UHGV virus genome: UHGV-0244400
Reading direction: 5' to 3' (one strand)
DNA from: a virus
DNA: 40,704 nt
In this document: one piece after another, positions 8,544 to 16,271 of the stretch
Numbering within the stretch: position 1 is the stretch's first letter
How the letters are laid out: every line of letters begins with the position of its first letter
Translations under genes and position numbers: made by a program
Notes under the pieces: generated by a model
Seen by the model: the letters and a program-made list of their open reading frames with translations, nothing else
Database searches by the model: none
Told to the model about the DNA's origin: nothing

Positions 8544-9088
8544 GCCTCCATCGCTTTATCAGGTTTGTCGGTGTTACTGCCCTGACCGTTCTCTCTGTGA
8601 CAATGCCCGTTATAGGCAAGCCGCATCGCTGACATGGTGGTGCCGCCGGAGTCGCACAGGTCTTTCACCTGTCCGGTCACTTCAAGGTCCATTTCAAAAC
8701 GTGCTTCAGGTGCATTGCGAAACGTGATCGTTTTACCTGCACCGTCCACTACGATCCCCTCCCGGGTCAGCGTCACGGACTGCCCCTGATCGTCATAGAC
8801 AGCCACCTCACCCGTCTGCAGCCCTTTCAGGCGGTAGCGCCGGTCCGACACCGTAACAACCACCGCATGAGAACGGTCGCCATCCGGAAACAACACCACC
8901 GCTTCCGCACCGCTGTTTGCCCTTGCGGTAAAACCGTAGGGTTCAAGATGTTCAACCCCGGCTTTGGGTTCACCGGCAATCAGGGACACATCCACGGTCT
9001 GACATTTCGTGGCGGCACTGATGCTTTTCACCACGGCCCGCCCAATCAGGCCGAGGAGTTGTCGCTGCATGGCTTCAATCGTCCTCAT
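8540..9088 (-). CDS. Baseplate assembly protein V / central spike (Mu gp45-like)
   Basis: 182 aa; position and size in Mu-like baseplate cluster. Confidence 0.7.
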   Translation of the reverse strand: MRTIEAMQRQLLGLIGRAVVKSISAATKCQTVDVSLIAGEPKAGVEHLEPYGFTARANSGAEAVVLFPDGDRSHAVVVTVSDRRYRLKGLQTGEVAVYDDQGQSVTLTREGIVVDGAGKTITFRNAPEARFEMDLEVTGQVKDLCDSGGTTMSAMRLAYNGHCHRENGQGSNTDKPDKAMEA

Positions 9089-10167
9089 CAGAACGGGTCC
9101 TCCTGTACTCTGGCTTTTTTCTTTTTCCGCGCGCCGGGGGCTTCTGGTTCAGGCAGATAAGCATCAGGTGGGCCGACACGGATTTCCGTCAGGGTGCCGT
9201 TCTGGTCCTGAGTAAACGTGACTTCCGAGACAAGCAGTTCGGTATTGTCGAAACCACAGACCGGATCGAAGACAATCACCCGCTGGTTGGGCTGCCACAG
9301 CGTACCGTTACCCTGTCGCCAGCCCTGCACCACATAGGTGGTTTCATCCGTCCGCGCCGCCCGTTGTCGGGCTTCAAAGTCAGCACGCGCAATACAGCCT
9401 GCCCCCGTGGCCTGCCCTGTCTGCCTGATATACATCGGACGGTAACGGGCAATAAATGCGTCCTCTGTGCGGGCCCGCAGCGCGGTGGTGGTGGCCTCAC
9501 CGAAATCATCGTCGTTTCCGGCACGCTGCCCCGCCACCTGGTAAACTGAAAACCGCTCCCGGATACTCTTCTCCGTATCACAGGAAAGGATGTTTTCCCC
9601 AAGTACCAGCGCGGTATGTGCCCGCGTTGAGCCAATACCGCCAATCACCAGCCTGCCGTGCGGGTCGTCATAAGCCAGCGCCTGCTGCTGACCGAGTATT
9701 TTGTTGATCACCTCGATCACCGTTTCACCGTGATCAGGCTGGACATCAGGAATAACACCCGACGGCGCATCGCTGTTCACCACCTCAATGCCGAAAGGCG
9801 CAGCAAGCGCCTGCGCAATCTGTACCAGCGATCGTCCGTTAAACTGTGTCGGTTCGGCTGCACAGTCAATCAGGTCAGCAGTCAGACTACGTCCGGCAAT
9901 ACCGGTGCTGACCGAACGGGCATCGTAACGAACGGGGGTCGCCTCCACCCAGCCGGTGATCACCAGCTCATCACCAATCAGCACTTCCACTTTTGAACCA
10001 TTTTTAATGCGCGGCTGAAGCGTGGTGATACCCTCATCTCCCGGCCACTGGCGGGTGATCTCCACGCTGAAATCCCGCGCCAGCCGTTCAATACCGGCAC
10101 CGATGCGCACCGATGTCCAGCCATTCCACTCCCGGCCATTTACCCGTAGCGTGACGTTATCGTTCAT
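9088..10167 (-). CDS. Tail protein, P2 gpD / Mu gp44-like (baseplate hub)
   Basis: 359 aa; position after DNA-circularisation gene; translationally coupled (start overlaps upstream stop). Confidence 0.75.
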   Translation of the reverse strand: MNDNVTLRVNGREWNGWTSVRIGAGIERLARDFSVEITRQWPGDEGITTLQPRIKNGSKVEVLIGDELVITGWVEATPVRYDARSVSTGIAGRSLTADLIDCAAEPTQFNGRSLVQIAQALAAPFGIEVVNSDAPSGVIPDVQPDHGETVIEVINKILGQQQALAYDDPHGRLVIGGIGSTRAHTALVLGENILSCDTEKSIRERFSVYQVAGQRAGNDDDFGEATTTALRARTEDAFIARYRPMYIRQTGQATGAGCIARADFEARQRAARTDETTYVVQGWRQGNGTLWQPNQRVIVFDPVCGFDNTELLVSEVTFTQDQNGTLTEIRVGPPDAYLPEPEAPGARKKKKARVQEDPF

Positions 10168-11498
10168 TGCACTGGCACCTTCAGAGGGATCACCGGCACA
10201 AAGCCGGGATGCGTAATGGCATTACGCCGAATAATGTCCGCGTCACGCGCCGCGTTATCAAACCAGGTCGCCGCCAGCACCAGCGCGGGTAAAACCTCAT
10301 CCGGTGTGCGATGAATGATCCGTGCAGACTGCTCAAGGCGCGTGTTGATATCCGCATTCAGATCTGCTTTCACCCGGCGCAGCGCCAGAAACAGCGCATC
10401 ACTGGTTGTACGGGACAACTCCTTATCAATTGCCGTATTCAGTGTGTCGCGAATGTCAGTCAGTTCTTCCCACGTCGGCAGGTCAACCGTGTTTTTCACC
10501 GCCGGTGCATTGTTCAGTGCCGGATGCGTGACGGAAGGCCAACCGGTGCTCTGCGCAGGTGTTGTTGCCTGCCCCACTGTGGCATTCTGCATCACCGCGG
10601 AAGTTGTTGGCGCAGGCAATCGGATGACGGCATACGCCGCTTCGCTGATTGCGGTCGTACGAAGGGTGCTGGCAACCACGTTACGCTGCTGCGTCGCCGT
10701 GGCGGTGGTTTTACTGTCCGTTTTCCAGACGCCGCGCGGTTGCAGATCGCTGCCGAGGCTGACACCGGAAAGCGTTTTGATCATGGTGACCAGGTCGCTG
10801 GCGTTACCATAAAGGCGTTTCCCGGTACGCCACATTTTCTGCACCTGCTCAACGAAATTTTTGCCTGACGATGGCGGCGGCAGAAGTACCGAGATATCAC
10901 CCTGCAACAGCCTGGCGGCATCCGATACGGCAGAATCCACCACTTTCATCGCATCAGAAACATACCCAAGCATTGTGCTGGCATTACCGATAACGTCGTT
11001 CTGCACAAAATCCGCCACGCCATCGATACTGAAACCGCTGAAGCTGTCACTGATGCAGTCATCCAGTGCAGAACAGGATGACATCAGCGTCTGCGCCGTC
11101 GCCACGCCTGATGTGGGGTAAGAGAGATCTCCCGCTTCGACAAACTTCAGGTCAAAGCGGACAATACGCCCTTCACTCTTCGATGTGCTGACCCGAACTT
11201 CCCCGTCAACACAGACTTTCAACTCACCGTATGTCGGGTGGACAAGCGTGCCGGGACCGGGTTTATTCAGCGCGTCAATCAGGCGATCGCGCTGGTCAAA
11301 GCAGTCATCTCCCACCACATAAGCCGTGATGGACGGGCGGAAAGTGACTTTTCCCAGATCTTCGGTATAGGGTTTGTCGCGGTTCGGATATTCGTGTGTT
11401 TCCACACGACGGCCGGTTCCCGCACTTTCTTCTTCAACCTTAAACGGCACACCTCGAAATGACGCATCCTGAAGCCTGTCTTTCCACGTCATATACAC
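10164..11498 (-). CDS. DNA circularisation protein (Mu N / gp43-like) tail component
   Basis: 444 aa; position between tape measure and baseplate hub as in Mu. Confidence 0.75.
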   Translation of the reverse strand: MYMTWKDRLQDASFRGVPFKVEEESAGTGRRVETHEYPNRDKPYTEDLGKVTFRPSITAYVVGDDCFDQRDRLIDALNKPGPGTLVHPTYGELKVCVDGEVRVSTSKSEGRIVRFDLKFVEAGDLSYPTSGVATAQTLMSSCSALDDCISDSFSGFSIDGVADFVQNDVIGNASTMLGYVSDAMKVVDSAVSDAARLLQGDISVLLPPPSSGKNFVEQVQKMWRTGKRLYGNASDLVTMIKTLSGVSLGSDLQPRGVWKTDSKTTATATQQRNVVASTLRTTAISEAAYAVIRLPAPTTSAVMQNATVGQATTPAQSTGWPSVTHPALNNAPAVKNTVDLPTWEELTDIRDTLNTAIDKELSRTTSDALFLALRRVKADLNADINTRLEQSARIIHRTPDEVLPALVLAATWFDNAARDADIIRRNAITHPGFVPVIPLKVPVQ

Positions 11499-11553: not shown

Positions 11554-12084
11554 TTAGCGAGTCAGAAACAACGAATCTTTATACTTTTGCTGTTGTTCAT
11601 TTAAATACTTAGCTGTTTCATCGCTGGCAAATGGAAATATTACCGTATTTTTAGGCATGGTAATTTCTTTTTTGTCCAGCGTCAGAGTAAACATAGGAAC
11701 ATACTGAGCAGAGTAACGCACCGCAGAAACGAGCTCTAGTTTAGACTCTTCAATAACACTTAAATTATCCAGGCTAACTTTCTCTTCATCTTTTTTCTTT
11801 GACGCATTTAAAGTTTTTATTACTTTATTTAATTTCTCCTGAAAATCCTCCTTAAAGTTTTCAGGATTGCCGTCGACAACAAGAATCTGTTCACCCTGAT
11901 TATCTGGAAAAATAATCTTTGCACTTATCAATTTATTTTCTTTATAAACATCACCAAGTTTTATGGCTCCTCCAGATAACTGAATAATATGTTCATCTTT
12001 AAAGGAGATGTTGCCAGAGATTATGAGAGATGAAAAAACAGCCGCTGCTCCAAGAATTATACTTGCTGTGATATAGCCTTTCAT
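11554..12084 (-). CDS. Moron: secreted or membrane-anchored protein of unknown function inserted in the tail operon
   Basis: 176 aa; N-terminal hydrophobic signal/anchor (ITASIILGAAAVFSSLIIS), Lys/Glu-rich body; markedly AT-rich versus flanking tail genes; own terminator; interrupts the otherwise Mu-like gene order. Confidence 0.6.
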   Translation of the reverse strand: MKGYITASIILGAAAVFSSLIISGNISFKDEHIIQLSGGAIKLGDVYKENKLISAKIIFPDNQGEQILVVDGNPENFKEDFQEKLNKVIKTLNASKKKDEEKVSLDNLSVIEESKLELVSAVRYSAQYVPMFTLTLDKKEITMPKNTVIFPFASDETAKYLNEQQQKYKDSLFLTR

Positions 12085-12175: not shown

Positions 12176-14008
12176 CTACCAAAATCGGGTATAGCCAACA
12201 TCGTGATTTATATCAATGCCACTGGAGCGTGTTTCCGTAACCCGCATACCTGGTGGCATATTTATAAATGATACCTTGATCTCACCATCAACTTTTGGCG
12301 CAGAAGCTTTGTTAATCATGAAGGGATTCGGGCCTGTGGCATCGGAGGCGTTGTTTGACTGAGCCAGATCTACCGCCGGATAAGGTGTGTATCCCCGCGC
12401 CGGTATTCCCGTCCCATAAGCATCATAAGCACCCGCGCCCCACTGCGCAGAGTTAATGGCATCGACCGTGTCACCGGAACTGTCGGTAAACCACTCAATA
12501 ATTGGCTTCAGCTTATCCCACATATCCTGAAACCACTTAACAACCGGTCCCCAGTTATTGATCACCATCCCCAGCGGCGACCAGGCAAAAACCTTCTTCA
12601 GAAGTTCCCAGCCAGCCTCAAAATAAGGACCAATGGTTTCCCAGAGCTTCTTAAAATAAGGTCCGACAACATCCCAGTTAGTGATAATTAATCCCGCAGC
12701 CAGAGCAATCGCCGTCGCAATCATGCCAATCGGCGTCATCGACATAATCCTGCTGACAATACTGATGGCACTGCCCACGCCCATCAATCCCAGTTTCAGA
12801 ATCGCAAGACCGGCAGCAAGCCCGACGACGCCGCGAATAACCCGGGGATTTTCATCCGCAAACTTCGTGAATTTCTCCCCCAACTCCCCCAGCCACTGCG
12901 TGATATTTTTGGCGTCACCAGAAAATGCGCCGCCAATAGCTGCAAGACCGTTAGTTGCGGTCCCCGTCATTGCCTCCCACAGGTTGGACAGCGTACCAAG
13001 CTGAGCCTGAACACGTTTATTCAGGCTGGCCTGTTTATTCATCTTCTGCTGGATCTGATCGTAGCCATCCTTTCCTTTATCGATTAGTGCATTGACCACC
13101 TGAAGGGTTTCGGCATCATCACCAAATATTGCCTTAAGTACGCCTGTTCGCTTAACGTCGGTCAGTTTTCGCAGCTTTGCCAGTTGCCTGAACATGTTAT
13201 CAAGACCGCCAAAACTCCCTTTGCCGTCAGTAAAATCGAGCTGTACCCCGAGTTTCTGGCGGGCCATGATTTTATTGACGTCCCTGATTTTCTTAACGCT
13301 TAATCCGGACTGGATAACTTTTCGCAGGGCGTTACCTGCCGACTCCCCGTTCATCCCCATCTGATCCATCATGACGCTGATGGGGGCAAGGCTCTGTGCA
13401 GCCTGAAGACCGTCCTTGTTCACCATCTTCAGAACAGAGCTGGTTTTAGTGAAGAAGGACAACATGTTGGTATCGTCAACGCCCAGATAAAACGCCTTCT
13501 GGATAGTGTCGAACAGCCCCATCATGTCTTCTGACGCCGTTCCGGTAGCATCCTGCATCTTTGCGGCAAACTCGGCAGCCGCTTCCGGTGTTTTTTTCAG
13601 TTGTACCGCAAGATAAGCTGTCGCTTTACCCACACCGCCAAGAATGTTTTCTGCCGGGATCCCCTGACGCACCAGCATCTGCATCATGTTCTGGAAATCA
13701 GCCGTTGTACCGGGTAGCTGATTACCCAGGCCAATAGCCAGTTTATTGATGTCCTGAAAGCTCTTTCCAACCTCGCCGTTCGCATCCATCATGGCGACTT
13801 TCAGCCCGGTGGCGGCGTTTTCCTGATCGGCATAAGATTTCAGGGAAAGCGTCAGACCCGCTGCCAGTCCGCCACCAAGCGCCAGCCCACCCTGTGACGC
13901 TTCTTCCGCCTGGCGTTTAAATCCCCGGATTTTCTTTTGCATTTTCGACAGCGCGGGAGAAAGCCTGTCGACACCGGTGATCAACGCCTTAAGCTCAAAT
14001 TCCGCCAT
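12176..14008 (-). CDS. Tail tape measure protein
   Basis: 610 aa; Ala/Gly-rich with hydrophobic central segment; position after chaperone genes. Confidence 0.85.
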   Translation of the reverse strand: MAEFELKALITGVDRLSPALSKMQKKIRGFKRQAEEASQGGLALGGGLAAGLTLSLKSYADQENAATGLKVAMMDANGEVGKSFQDINKLAIGLGNQLPGTTADFQNMMQMLVRQGIPAENILGGVGKATAYLAVQLKKTPEAAAEFAAKMQDATGTASEDMMGLFDTIQKAFYLGVDDTNMLSFFTKTSSVLKMVNKDGLQAAQSLAPISVMMDQMGMNGESAGNALRKVIQSGLSVKKIRDVNKIMARQKLGVQLDFTDGKGSFGGLDNMFRQLAKLRKLTDVKRTGVLKAIFGDDAETLQVVNALIDKGKDGYDQIQQKMNKQASLNKRVQAQLGTLSNLWEAMTGTATNGLAAIGGAFSGDAKNITQWLGELGEKFTKFADENPRVIRGVVGLAAGLAILKLGLMGVGSAISIVSRIMSMTPIGMIATAIALAAGLIITNWDVVGPYFKKLWETIGPYFEAGWELLKKVFAWSPLGMVINNWGPVVKWFQDMWDKLKPIIEWFTDSSGDTVDAINSAQWGAGAYDAYGTGIPARGYTPYPAVDLAQSNNASDATGPNPFMINKASAPKVDGEIKVSFINMPPGMRVTETRSSGIDINHDVGYTRFW

Positions 14009-14419
14009 GTGTGCGTTTCTCCTGCTCTATCCTGTTTGCCTGACTGACCAGCAAGGGAATTTCACTGATCGGCATATTCAGCAATTCGAAGGGATTAATG
14101 CGCCAGTAGCTGGCGCAGTCAAAGAAGCGATCAGTGAGGTATTCAGCCGTCAGGCCTGGAGGAAAAAACCAGCCACAAGCCACGCCGCTGCATTCAGGTC
14201 TGCCGGAGACATCTGGTCGACAGAGCTTTGCGGCACTTTCGCCAGCCGCACAATGTATTTCGATACCACATGTGCCAGAAGTCTGACGGACTCATCCTGA
14301 TTCATCTGGTAGGGATACCCCAGCTCGCGGACATCTTTCCCGGTGGGCTCATCAAACTCCAGTACGGAGAGTGTCTCGCCATGAGCGGTAATCGGTTTCT
14401 TTAACTCAAGCTCTTTCAT
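13995..14419 (-). CDS. Tail assembly chaperone, putative -1 frameshift-extended form (fusion of 14150..14419 frame with 13995..14183 frame)
   Basis: Slippery heptamer T TTT TTC at about 14162..14168 in the zero frame 4 codons before the stop; the -1 frame stays open for 54 further codons to the tape-measure start. Confidence 0.4.
14150..14419 (-). CDS. Tail assembly chaperone (short form)
   Basis: 89 aa ORF between tube and tape measure; ends just past a UUUUUUC slippery heptamer. Confidence 0.6.
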   Translation of the reverse strand: MKELELKKPITAHGETLSVLEFDEPTGKDVRELGYPYQMNQDESVRLLAHVVSKYIVRLAKVPQSSVDQMSPADLNAAAWLVAGFFLQA

Positions 14420-14775
14420 TACTGGTAATCCCCTTCTTCACCGTGGAACTCAAGATCAACCGTGCCTTCTTCGGCATTATGGTTCGCTTCTCCGTGCAGC
14501 CAGGCGGACGACAATACATAGACCTGACCGTTCGCCAGCTCGGCAGTGATAGTCATCTCATCAGACGAGGTGATTTTGCTCACCGGAAAATTCTTCGGCA
14601 CCTTGAAGGTCCCTTTGACATAAGGCGCACGGTGAGTTTCCTTGCGGTCCACTGAACCGTCCAGGCCGATGATGTCATCATTGACCGTCCTGTTCATGGG
14701 CACCTCAATGCCGCCGGTCAGCGATAGCTGCTGACCGTCAATTTTGAAATAACAGGTTCCCCCGATACGGGCCAT
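14419..14775 (-). CDS. Tail tube protein (contractile tail)
   Basis: 118 aa; directly downstream of sheath gene with overlapping stop/start. Confidence 0.8.
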   Translation of the reverse strand: MARIGGTCYFKIDGQQLSLTGGIEVPMNRTVNDDIIGLDGSVDRKETHRAPYVKGTFKVPKNFPVSKITSSDEMTITAELANGQVYVLSSAWLHGEANHNAEEGTVDLEFHGEEGDYQ

Positions 14776-16271
14776 TATGCAAACTCCTCTGAATACTGAA
14801 GACGGAACTGGTTAACCACGGCAAAGACACGCAACTGGTTAACATAGTCAGGCGGGAACAGCGTGTTCAGGCGGTTCGGATCGCTGGCATCACGCTCCAC
14901 AACCAGGTACTGCTTAAACAGTTCGTAGTTTTCCACGATCCCCGCACGCTCAAGCTGACGGTAGGTTGCCAGCAGTTCCCCTTTGATCACCGCCGGGGTG
15001 ACAATCGCCTGACCGGGACCAAAGCGGGTACCGTCACTGGCAAGCTTGTGACGCCCGTACTTACTGGTAATGACGGATTTCAGTTTGCGCAGTACATACG
15101 CGCTGGTATGCAGCGTCTCACTGTCGAGGTAACTGTTATCCGCAACCCCGTAAGCGTTTTTCCTGTACGTGGTGACATCACGCTGAATGCGCAGTACCCC
15201 GCTTTCGACATACGCCGTTGCCACGCCATGAGACAGCAGGGTCTGTTGTTCGGTCATCGTGAACCGTTTCCCCTTCGGCGCAGGCAGCATACCCACCAGC
15301 TCACCGGTCTGCGTGGGACGTGCCGGATCGTTGCGGATAAACACCGCTGCGCGGGCGGTACGGCTTGCCGCCAGCTCGTCGGCAGGCGTCTGGGTCTCTT
15401 TTTCGTACCCCGCCAGGGTGATGTGCTGCTGGTTAAACTGGTCACCTGCGTTCACCAGTTCTGACAGTGTGCCGGTCTTTGCCGTATACACATGACCATA
15501 CAGCTGACGCGCATAGCTCCAGCGACCGCTGGTATCGTTCATCTCGGTCACCAGCGTGTTAACGGAGGCCGTGTCGTTGAACGGCAGACCGATATAATCA
15601 AACGGCTCATCCGCCATTGCAGCCACCGCGCCGGTGAGAACTGGAGCGCCCGTTCCGGCGGTACCCGTCGCCACGGCAATCTGTACGCCCGCTGGCAGCA
15701 CTTCGCCCCCACCAAACCCGTAGTAATTGAGGCTGACAGGAATTTCATTCCCGCAAAGCCCCTTATGACGCGCGGTCAATGTGACCACGCCTGCCGAAGA
15801 TGAGGCCGTAAACGGCAGGGCCGGAACGGCATTGATGGCATCCTGGATACTGCTGGCAATCGTCGTGACGTTATCGCCGTTAGTCACCGGTGCCTGCACG
15901 CGGGTACGTCCCACATAAACATTCACCGTGCCGGTTTCGGTTGCCGCCCCGGTCACCGTCAGCGTAACTGTTGCCGCCGCGCCCGTGGATTCAGGAACGG
16001 CAATCACATACAGTTCGCCAAACGGGTCAGTCTGGCGATAAGCCTCGACCATACGCGCCAGCTGACTTCCCGCACCACAAATCTGGCGTGCATAGTCTGC
16101 CGACGGCATCAGCACCAGACTGTTGGCAACAATCTCTGCACCGTTATTGGCATGACCAATCAGCAGCGATGCTCCGCTGTCCTGTGCAGTATTCGCCGCC
16201 TGGTTATCCATTTCCGCATAAAACAGCGGAACCAGCGTATTCGACGGAATGGTGTTAAAGCTTATCGTCAT
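14775..16271 (-). CDS. Tail sheath protein (contractile tail)
   Basis: 498 aa; size and sequence character of myovirus sheath; followed by tube. Confidence 0.9.
   Translation of the reverse strand: MTISFNTIPSNTLVPLFYAEMDNQAANTAQDSGASLLIGHANNGAEIVANSLVLMPSADYARQICGAGSQLARMVEAYRQTDPFGELYVIAVPESTGAAATVTLTVTGAATETGTVNVYVGRTRVQAPVTNGDNVTTIASSIQDAINAVPALPFTASSSAGVVTLTARHKGLCGNEIPVSLNYYGFGGGEVLPAGVQIAVATGTAGTGAPVLTGAVAAMADEPFDYIGLPFNDTASVNTLVTEMNDTSGRWSYARQLYGHVYTAKTGTLSELVNAGDQFNQQHITLAGYEKETQTPADELAASRTARAAVFIRNDPARPTQTGELVGMLPAPKGKRFTMTEQQTLLSHGVATAYVESGVLRIQRDVTTYRKNAYGVADNSYLDSETLHTSAYVLRKLKSVITSKYGRHKLASDGTRFGPGQAIVTPAVIKGELLATYRQLERAGIVENYELFKQYLVVERDASDPNRLNTLFPPDYVNQLRVFAVVNQFRLQYSEEFA

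Follow-up and report, generated by a model that had tools for sequence, protein, structure and literature searches.

A conserved U_UUU_UUC slippery site predicts a −1 frameshifted tail assembly chaperone pair in SfV-like prophages

The window analyzed here, the whole 40,704-nucleotide stretch of virus genome UHGV-0244400, is 98 to 99% identical to phages SfI, SfII, and SfV. By gene context and Pfam, its tail operon belongs to a prophage of the SfI/SfII/SfV kind whose tail is of the Mu type, and with Pfam assignments the gene order reads sheath, tube, chaperone, tape measure. The coordinates of all features discussed are collected in Table 1. An 89-amino-acid chaperone ORF had been described previously at this site, and both the ORF list and the translation bear it out. 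The protein matches Pfam family PF10109 (Phage_TAC_7) over residues 4 to 86 with an E value of 1.9e-16 (60.3 bits against a cutoff of 25) and also matches PHROG 166, "tail protein." The chaperone lies between the tube and tape measure genes, the position occupied by pairs of the lambda G/GT type, and its start overlaps the end of the tube gene in a TAATG junction. The tape measure start used here is also annotated in SfI and SfV. The locus is present in ~1,060 of 5,426 complete E. coli genomes.

Table 1. Features of the chaperone locus, in coordinates of the window
Feature	Position	Strand	Remarks
Tail tube gene	14419..14775	minus	PF10618 Tail_tube, E=2.4e-33; directly upstream of chaperone
Tail assembly chaperone, zero frame	14150..14419	minus	89 aa; counterpart of P2 gpE / lambda gpG; ORF list
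Chaperone stop TGA	14152..14150	minus	
Slippery heptamer T_TTT_TTC	14162..14168	minus	Phase checked against zero frame
−1 frame extension, E'/T-like	13995..14162	minus	55 codons PPGLTAEYLTDRFFDCASYWRINPFELLNMPISEIPLLVSQANRIEQEKRTHGGI, then TGA 13997..13995; from translation
Predicted frameshift fusion CDS	13995..14419	minus	join(14419..14162, 14162..13995), 141 aa
Tape measure gene	12176..14008	minus	ORF list; PF10145, E=1.3e-26
Conserved 8-bp RNA hairpin UGCGCCAG-CUA-CUGGCGCA	14099..14117	minus	Inside −1 ORF, 44 nt 3' of heptamer
Possible long-range stem-loop domain	14038..14155	minus	Minimum-energy fold of the window

Close to the end of the chaperone ORF lies the sequence TTTTTTC, in the zero-frame phase T_TTT_TTC that the preliminary description had assigned to it. 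The first T of the heptamer is the third base of a GGT codon, and three sense codons (CTC CAG GCC) separate the heptamer from the TGA. The −1 frame had been described as open for 54 codons and as ending 14 bp upstream of the tape measure start. It is indeed open as far as that start, but it comprises 55 sense codons (CCT...ATT) and its stop lies 3' of the tape measure ATG (14008..14006), which falls within the final 14 nt of the −1 ORF, so that the two genes overlap by 14 nt instead of being separated. Reading through the heptamer into the −1 frame gives the predicted junction peptide ...AGFFPPGLTAEY....

Judged from this sequence by itself, the pattern is not extraordinary. The ORFs of at least 100 amino acids in the window contain 39 in-frame X_XXW_WWN heptamers, and 9.7% of the codon positions in these ORFs are followed by 55 or more open codons in the −1 frame (median, 11). 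These frequencies are what would be cited for a coincidence or relic, in which a T-rich Gly-Phe-Phe string precedes an accidentally open frame and no second product is made. We therefore turn to related loci. Scans of viral contigs were seeded with diverged homologues, a first scan having returned only chaperones that were 100% identical and of no use for comparison. Among 261 related loci, with protein identities reaching as low as 40%, 257 have T_TTT_TTY in the same register, and it was found likewise at all 20 genome loci, whose proteins ranged from 100% to 40% identity. The glycine codon ahead of the heptamer is GGT in 164 of the 167 unique versions, unlike the adjacent alanine and valine codons, which among these relatives use all of their synonymous codons; the heptamer is conserved at synonymous sites. 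GGG replaces GGT at 4/261 loci, giving a weakened heptamer. Both frames are open in every relative only in a stretch that begins 5 codons ahead of the heptamer and ends 3 codons past it, and T_TTT_TTY is the only slippery motif in this overlap that all relatives share.

The −1 frame was open in all 167 unique relatives, as a comparative check of the preliminary description required, with a length of 49 to 59 codons in 166 of them and 67 in a single outlier (L023). The extensions represent 74 distinct peptides with the common motif FDxAxYWRxxP...QAxRI, and the extension in the window matches PHROG 32181 (E=4.7e-40). Pairwise differences in the −1 frame are distributed over the three codon positions as 527:325:1104, a third-position excess. 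On sequence evidence, the −1 ORF is under purifying selection and evolves like coding sequence. Its end falls between ~1 nt before and 14 nt after the tape measure start at 20/20 genome loci. Since the heptamer is kept in register at 257/261 loci and the −1 frame is open in 167/167 relatives, chance is removed as an explanation; the synonymous-site conservation of the heptamer, together with a frame that persists across so many distinct peptides, with coding-like substitutions, and that terminates at the tape measure start in every case, leaves the coincidence reading with a very remote probability. Taken together, the observations make it very probable that a −1 frameshift at GGU_UUU_UUC yields, from one start codon, both the 89-amino-acid chaperone and a predicted 141-amino-acid fusion.

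The downstream ORF might instead be a small gene in its own right, with translation beginning at a GTG at 14183. The ORF list does contain a 62-amino-acid GTG ORF at 13995..14183, a 60-amino-acid hypothetical protein is annotated at the same position in vB_EcoM-689R6, and such gene calls make up a family, PHROG 32181. Against this, no ATG, GTG, or TTG is available to the −1 ORF between the preceding stop and the heptamer in 11/19 and in 90/167 unique relatives. Where there is a start, it is composed of the wobble base of the preceding codon and the TG of a tryptophan TGG, it varies among GTG, ATG, TTG, and CTG, and no Shine-Dalgarno (SD)-like sequence precedes it. Conservation of the −1 peptide, moreover, begins right at the heptamer. 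We consider an independent gene highly improbable. An overlapping second ORF that lacks its own initiation signal in most relatives and ends at the tape measure start is the arrangement of the lambda paradigm, the frameshifted chaperone pair G/GT reportedly set out by Xu, Hendrix, and Duda in 2004.

The closest counterpart of the predicted −1 frameshift is that of phage P2, whose FETUD tail operon has a −1 shift annotated at TTTTTTG, with gpE and gpE+E' as the two products. The codon context GGT TTT TTN is common to both, the products are 91 and 142 amino acids long in P2 and 89 and 141 here, PF10109 covers the N-terminal part of each chaperone, and both genes lie between the tube and tape measure genes. 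The −1 ORF overlaps the tape measure gene by 8 nt in P2 (gene T) and in most relatives of the locus studied here, compared with 14 nt in the window. A profile built from 14 fusions gave a colinear alignment of 118 columns to P2 E+E', spanning the junction (hhalign E=8.7e-5, probability 60%), and all 14 fusion homologues, like the chaperone itself, scored above the gathering threshold of PF10109. A pairwise BLASTP comparison of the fusion with P2 E+E' was not significant (E=0.55). The two loci also differ in other respects: the heptamer ends in C here and in G in P2, the zero-frame stop follows 3 codons after the heptamer here and 6 in P2, and the surrounding tail module is of the Mu/SfV type here and of the P2 type in P2. 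P2 E+E' scores 76.3 bits against PF06528 (P2 GpE), whereas neither the extension nor any of the 14 fusions matched this family at E<=1. A sequence search of the PDB with the fusion profile found no relative, and the chaperone gene is absent from the prophage clusters of Sharma et al. (2014). Because the geometry matches that of P2 E/E+E' almost exactly, the locus is an unannotated case of a known kind.

The logic and gene position are also those of lambda gpG/gpGT, two products with a common N terminus. The lambda shift occurs at a low level, and tail assembly depends on a set ratio of its products (PMC5009743). Lambda differs in its heptamer (G_GGA_AAG, read by tRNAs for Gly and Lys, compared with Phe and Phe here) and in having a siphovirus tail where the tail here is contractile; there is no detectable sequence similarity. 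The preliminary description had proposed that the G/GT and E/E+E' arrangement is reproduced at this locus, and each of its defining features that was tested at the sequence level was found.

A homopolymeric slip site also invites an explanation at the level of transcription. RNA polymerase could add an extra U within the T6 run, and the resulting U7 mRNA, read normally as GFF-PPGL..., would encode the same 141-amino-acid fusion, so that the predicted protein is identical by either mechanism. One relative (L025) keeps T6 in another codon register (GGG TTT TTT CTC), which fits a slipping polymerase better than tandem tRNA slippage. Documented bacterial cases, however, use runs of ~9 A or T (PMC5009743), and across the 261 loci the run is 6, rarely 7, and never longer. 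The X_XXY_YYZ register, moreover, is kept at 257 of these loci, and the P2 counterpart at TTTTTTG is both annotated and described as a translational −1 shift. Transcriptional slippage is accordingly improbable in our judgment. We also considered six proteins encoded as single "fused" ORFs (P0001 to P0006) as natural fusions and rejected them; each is a singleton with several indels at homopolymers, and they are therefore assembly errors and not evidence.

The Mu-like character of the tail module raises the question of the direction of the shift. The neighboring genes match Mu-like families: Pfam scans of the window proteins detected DUF2635 (to which RefSeq assigns Mu gp38), DNA_circ_N, and baseplate domains of the GpP/gp44 kind, and phage records label the sheath and tube as similar to Mu L and M. 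Mu gp41, a 144-amino-acid protein of family PF23746 with weak similarity to PF10109 (24.7 bits), has been reported to use a −2 shift (PMC5009743). A −2 shift here would enter the +1 frame, and U6 runs can support such shifts according to one report (PMC3458567). In Mu, the +1 frame is open after the stop, which a G5 run (CGGGGGCGA) precedes by 9 codons; here, the +1 frame of the window shuts 5 codons past the heptamer (median, 5 in 167 relatives), and the conserved extension sits in the −1 frame. The window chaperone showed neither a match to PF23746 (Gp41_Mu) nor an extension in the +1/−2 frame. The probability of a −2 shift is close to negligible, and the predicted −1 shift on a U run differs in this respect from the mechanism of Mu.

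We propose the following mechanism for the −1 shift. Most ribosomes would synthesize the zero-frame protein and terminate at the UGA. In a minority, the tRNAs-Phe on UUU (P site) and UUC (A site) would slip one base 5' onto U_UUU_UU, where tRNA-Phe should be able to re-pair in the P and A sites alike, and 55 further −1 codons would then be read to complete the fusion. Its C-terminal domain would correspond to P2 E' and lambda T. By analogy with lambda G/GT and P2 E/E+E', the common N-terminal part may coat the tape measure protein, and the role of the rare C-terminal extension would be to bring in the tube protein; a fixed ratio of the two products would aid correct tail assembly, and neither protein would be expected in the virion.

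Heptamers of the form X_XXY_YYZ are read by E. coli ribosomes in dnaX and in IS911/IS3, as would be the case here. U_UU.U_UU.C is a member of the H_HH.U_UU.Y class, which is efficient in E. coli, and is also used in some IS elements; the reported frameshifting of 0.12% for the bare motif rises to 0.89% when the IS911 stimulators are added and to 7.6% when the IS3 pseudoknot is (PMC4066793). The dnaX, IS911, and IS3 cassettes have both an SD-like element upstream and, 5 to 9 nt downstream, a stem-loop or pseudoknot, and the window has neither in local form. Between 6 and 17 nt 5' of the heptamer, no SD-like sequence was found, pairing with the anti-SD being weak (−4.1 kcal/mol, where AGGAGG reaches −13.0); GGGAGGTGG occurs upstream of the heptamer, carried only by some distant relatives. 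RNA folding, which the preliminary description had suggested as a check for a downstream stimulator, returned no short-range hairpin in the window (first 42 nt, −5.4 kcal/mol, z=+0.13; clade mean z=+0.31), and P2-like phages are also without one. A weak GGCC/GGCU stem considered as a local stimulator was rejected, being 75% paired, without covariation, and not conserved. A search of positions 13800 to 14600 against Rfam matched no family.

Folding of the region did reveal a strongly conserved 8-bp hairpin 44 nt downstream and a possible long-range helix 6 nt downstream of the heptamer. The 8-bp hairpin is unique in the window, is restricted to the SfV-like clade, and is intact in 120 of 167 unique relatives. 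Synonymous sites in its stem are frozen while the loop is variable, 96% of cells are paired across 78 sequences, and the stem carries one compensatory change from G-C to A-U together with G-U intermediates; it is the sole downstream helix kept by RNAalifold. In the predicted long-range helix, GCCUGAC (14155..14149, containing the zero-frame UGA) would pair with GUCAGGC (14044..14038) after a 6-nt spacer, and a second long-range helix would join 14137..14128 to 14071..14062. The base helix is paired in 86.6% of cells in 78 clade members, compared with 23 to 38% in slid controls; it shows no covariation and is not recovered by RNAalifold. Folding of the region as a whole exceeds expectation: the 102 nt downstream of the heptamer reach −32.9 kcal/mol in the window (z=−4.58), and in 74 lineages a mean z of −2.24 against shuffles was obtained for the 105 nt that follow the heptamer, compared with −0.30 and −0.21 for two upstream control windows. 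P2 has a similar downstream excess (z=−3.06).

Because no canonical short-range stimulator was found, the efficiency of the proposed shift would rest on the heptamer itself, with a long-range RNA domain, its base helix 6 nt downstream, as a possible aid. The frozen stem sites, the compensatory change, and the downstream folding excess here and in P2 hint, tentatively and at a probability we regard as low, that such a domain, and not a local hairpin, sets how efficiently the frame is shifted in SfV-like phages and perhaps throughout the P2 E/E' family. As a speculative part of this reading, the domain would span ~118 nt in the window, with the UGA-containing helix at its base and the 8-bp hairpin at its tip. 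Alternatively, the 8-bp hairpin may act in mRNA processing or stability or in translational control of the tape measure gene.

No frameshift is annotated in the records checked, namely those of SfI, SfV, vB_EcoM-689R6, and one NCBI-annotated (PGAP) E. coli genome; as a consequence, one presumably essential tail protein would be omitted from them or miscalled as a small hypothetical gene. In principle this is nothing new, as chaperone frameshifting is a well-known phage strategy. The finding would add SfV-like tails of the Mu type to those that use the P2 E/E+E' solution, whereas for Mu itself a −2 shift has been reported. Bare U6C gives only ~0.1% frameshifting in reporters, an efficiency that the conserved downstream RNA structure may raise here.

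The 89-aa protein encoded between the tail tube and tape measure genes matched PF10109 ("E, or 41 or 14") in Pfam with a score of 60.3 bits (cutoff, 25) and is a tail assembly chaperone of that family. Its gene ends in GCT GGT TTT TTC CTC CAG GCC TGA, and the slippery heptamer that the preliminary description had placed in the zero frame near this end was confirmed in phase: TTTTTTC lies at 14168..14162, with the wobble base of GGT as its first T (X_XXY_YYZ phasing). Past a −1 slip, reading continues as CCT CCA GGC CTG ACG and onward through 55 sense codons, one more than previously counted, to a TGA at 13997..13995. This stop is 3′ of the tape measure ATG at 14008. Where a 14-bp gap between the two ORFs had been described, there is thus a 14-nt overlap. 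The fusion read through the slip is 141 aa, and the sequence comparisons described below indicate that it is very probably made.

Features of the tail gene region and of the predicted RNA hairpin
Feature	Coordinates	Strand	Match or remark
Tail sheath	14775-16271	minus	
Tail tube	14419-14775	minus	PF10618, E=2.4e-33
Chaperone ORF, 89 aa	14150-14419	minus	PF10109
Perfect 8-bp hairpin, UGCGCCAG-CUA-CUGGCGCA	14117..14099	minus	inside −1 ORF, 44 nt past slip site
Tape measure	12176-14008	minus	PF10145, E=1.3e-26
Low-GC ORF	11554-12084	minus	
DNA-circulation-type gene	10164-11498	minus	PF07157 DNA_circ_N
Mu gp44/GpP-type baseplate hub	9088-10167	minus	

The low-GC ORF that separates the tape measure gene from the DNA-circulation gene encodes 176 aa with a hydrophobic N terminus (~33% GC, versus ~52% in its flanks). 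It matched PHROG 5485 (unknown function; E=1e-107); Pfam and PADLOC searches gave no match, and neither did a megablast search against the phage collection, so the SfI, SfII, and SfV records lack this ORF, which resembles a moron (an inserted accessory gene).

The evidence from the single sequence is only moderate. In-frame A/T-type slippery heptamers number 39 in the window's ORFs of at least 100 aa, and at 9.7% of codon positions the −1 frame is open for at least 55 codons. Comparative evidence is what decides between chance and a real site. We compared 20 loci from bacterial genomes (one genome per species, including the betaproteobacterium Derxia; chaperone identity, 100% to 40%) and 240 further loci from viral contigs, found in searches seeded with the window protein and with two diverged homologues. 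Close to the end of the chaperone ORF, 257 of 261 loci, the window included, have T_TTT_TTC or T_TTT_TTT in one and the same zero-frame register. The other four (L025, L056, L062, and L246), near-identical to the window, have GGG in place of GGT, giving G_TTT_TTC or G_TTT_TTT and leaving A-site re-pairing alone; prophage decay, sequencing variation, or tolerance of a weak site may explain them. The Gly codon ahead of Phe-Phe was GGT in 19 of 19 unique versions (164 of 167 in the larger set); across the 19, the neighboring Ala codon was GCT, GCC, GCG, or GCA, and the Val codon took four synonymous forms.

The expectation that the −1 frame would be open in relatives was borne out: over 167 unique nucleotide versions it remained open for 49 to 59 codons, with one rearranged outlier, and the 74 distinct peptides that it encodes have in common the motif [FY]-F-D-x-A-x-[YF]-W-x-x-x-P ... 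Q-A-x-R-I. The −1 stop falls around the tape measure start, usually with an 8-nt overlap (20 genome loci). Pairwise differences in the −1 frame within the window's clade were distributed over codon positions 1, 2, and 3 as 527:325:1104, the pattern expected of translated sequence under purifying selection. A few nucleotides 5′ of the heptamer, many relatives (e.g., L088, L095, L195, L196, L220, and L221) carry the E. coli Chi sequence, GCTGGTGG, in a stretch derived from the codons Trp-Leu-Val-Ala; the window has GCTTGTGG at 14173-14180 (minus strand), one mismatch from Chi. Coding coincidence is the probable explanation.

The stretch open in both frames in every relative is confined to the 5 codons before and the 3 codons after the heptamer. 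The frame change must therefore lie within it, and it holds no slippery motif other than the T run. The downstream ORF is unlikely to be initiated independently, at GTG 14183 in the window: in 11 of 19 unique relatives, and in 90 of 167 in the larger set, no ATG, GTG, or TTG occurs in the −1 frame from the preceding stop to the heptamer, and any start codon that is present lacks a Shine-Dalgarno sequence and arises incidentally from the wobble base of the preceding codon plus the TG of the Trp codon. A −2 shift, as reported for the Mu chaperone (PMC5009743), is excluded by the closure of the +1 frame, which ends after a median of 5 codons in the 167 versions. Transcriptional slippage would yield the same protein as a ribosomal slip, but the bacterial cases described involve runs of ~9 A or T (PMC5009743), whereas the run here is 6, rarely 7, T in every locus, and we consider this source of the fusion very improbable.

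The region shares 98 to 99% identity with SfI, SfII, and SfV, which are serotype-converting phages of Shigella flexneri, and with related E. coli phages. Among 5,426 complete E. coli genomes, 1,063 carry a prophage match to it. A frameshift annotation was absent from all four records inspected (SfI, SfV, one PGAP genome, and vB_EcoM-689R6). The 89-aa gene is the sole listing at the locus in SfI RefSeq and SfV GenBank; NCBI PGAP annotation of E. coli strain 165 (L004, NZ_CP020509) also gives it alone, with the −1 extension unannotated, and in vB_EcoM-689R6 the downstream frame is called a separate 60-aa hypothetical protein. Locus tags in L004 pass from RS22170 (chaperone) to RS22160 (tape measure) across a 141-nt gap, which suggests that a gene call there was dropped at re-annotation. 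A public protein collection holds 107- to 139-aa "fused" chaperones (P0001 to P0006); since these are singletons with multiple homopolymer indels, we rejected them as assembly or sequencing artefacts that mimic the frameshift product.

The geometry is almost the same as in P2, where the annotated −1 site is GTC GGT TTT TTG, the lengths are 91 aa for E and 142 aa for E+E′, and the overlap of the −1 ORF with gene T is 8 nt. P2 E+E′ matches both PF10109 and PF06528; in Pfam searches with the extension and 14 fusions, PF06528 was not reached, and BLASTP against P2 E+E′ was not significant. Profile comparison with hhalign aligned the 14 fusions colinearly with P2 E+E′, through the junction and into E′ (E=8.7e-5; probability, 60%). 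We therefore file the N-terminal domain as a PF10109 member and the extension as a putative divergent functional counterpart of E′ outside PF06528. The surrounding module is Mu-like, yet the chaperone of Mu is a 144-aa PF23746 protein. As far as sequence analysis reaches, the proposed G/GT or E/E+E′ arrangement upstream of the tape measure is supported, and the locus is best described as a putative unannotated frameshifted tail chaperone of a known class, the P2 E/E+E′ type.

All heptamers have been measured in E. coli by Sharma et al. (PMC4066793), and U_UU.U_UU.C falls in their efficient H_HH.U_UU.Y class. UUUUUUC gave 0.12% frameshifting bare, 0.89% with IS911 stimulators, and 7.6% with the IS3 pseudoknot; the P2 motif, UUUUUUG, gave 0.12%, 0.25%, and 0.77%, respectively (PMC4066793). 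Since these values differ by stimulator, context should matter. Anti-Shine-Dalgarno pairing upstream of the heptamer is weak in the window (−4.1 kcal/mol), and some distant relatives carry GGGAGGTGG upstream. No local hairpin was found in the first 42 nt after the heptamer (−5.4 kcal/mol, z=+0.13 in the window; mean z=+0.31 in 41 clade variants), nor was a small GGCC/GGCU stem conserved; structure did appear further downstream. In distant clades, the zero frame extends 8 to 14 codons and GC-rich hairpins often begin 1 to 11 nt past the heptamer.

The 102 nt downstream in the window are strongly structured (−32.9 kcal/mol, z=−4.58). Across 74 lineage representatives, the 105 nt past the heptamer folded better than dinucleotide shuffles (mean z=−2.24), while two upstream control windows showed no excess folding (−0.30 and −0.21). 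The core is the 8-bp hairpin, TGCGCCAG-NNN-CTGGCGCA with a variable loop, which occurs once in the window, is preserved intact by 120 of 167 unique relatives, and is missing from more distant clades. Its synonymous stem sites (TGC, GCC, TAC, and CGC) are frozen across the clade, whereas variation is seen in the loop base and the flanking codons, and its closing pair shows one compensatory G-C to A-U change with G-U intermediates. At its distance from the slip site, it cannot act alone as a classical stimulator. When the wider window mRNA is folded to minimum energy, the hairpin sits at the tip of a rod of ~118 nt, whose predicted base helix pairs GCCUGAC (14155..14149, including the zero-frame UGA) with GUCAGGC (14044..14038) and begins 6 nt past the heptamer, the canonical spacing. 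This rod was 86.6% paired on 78 clade sequences versus 23 to 38% in slid controls, and some middle-helix pairs change on both sides. Three observations argue against the rod: it was derived from the window itself, the base helix showed no covariation because both strands are constrained by coding, and RNAalifold kept the 8-bp hairpin alone. In P2, the E′ coding region downstream of the slip (L107, 2686-2790) has similar excess structure (−39.2 kcal/mol, z=−3.06), and a hairpin, CAGUGA-UAUU-UCACUG, sits on codons homologous to those of the 8-bp hairpin; P2-like sites are described in the literature as lacking downstream structure within 60 nt. That a long-range RNA domain sets frameshift efficiency in SfV-like phages, and perhaps in the P2 E/E′ family, is a tentative and rather doubtful reading of these models.

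Lambda G/GT is the functional paradigm for such a chaperone pair: G coats the tape measure and T recruits the tail tube protein, and neither is found in the virion (PMC5009743). By analogy, the products encoded here may take the roles of G and T.
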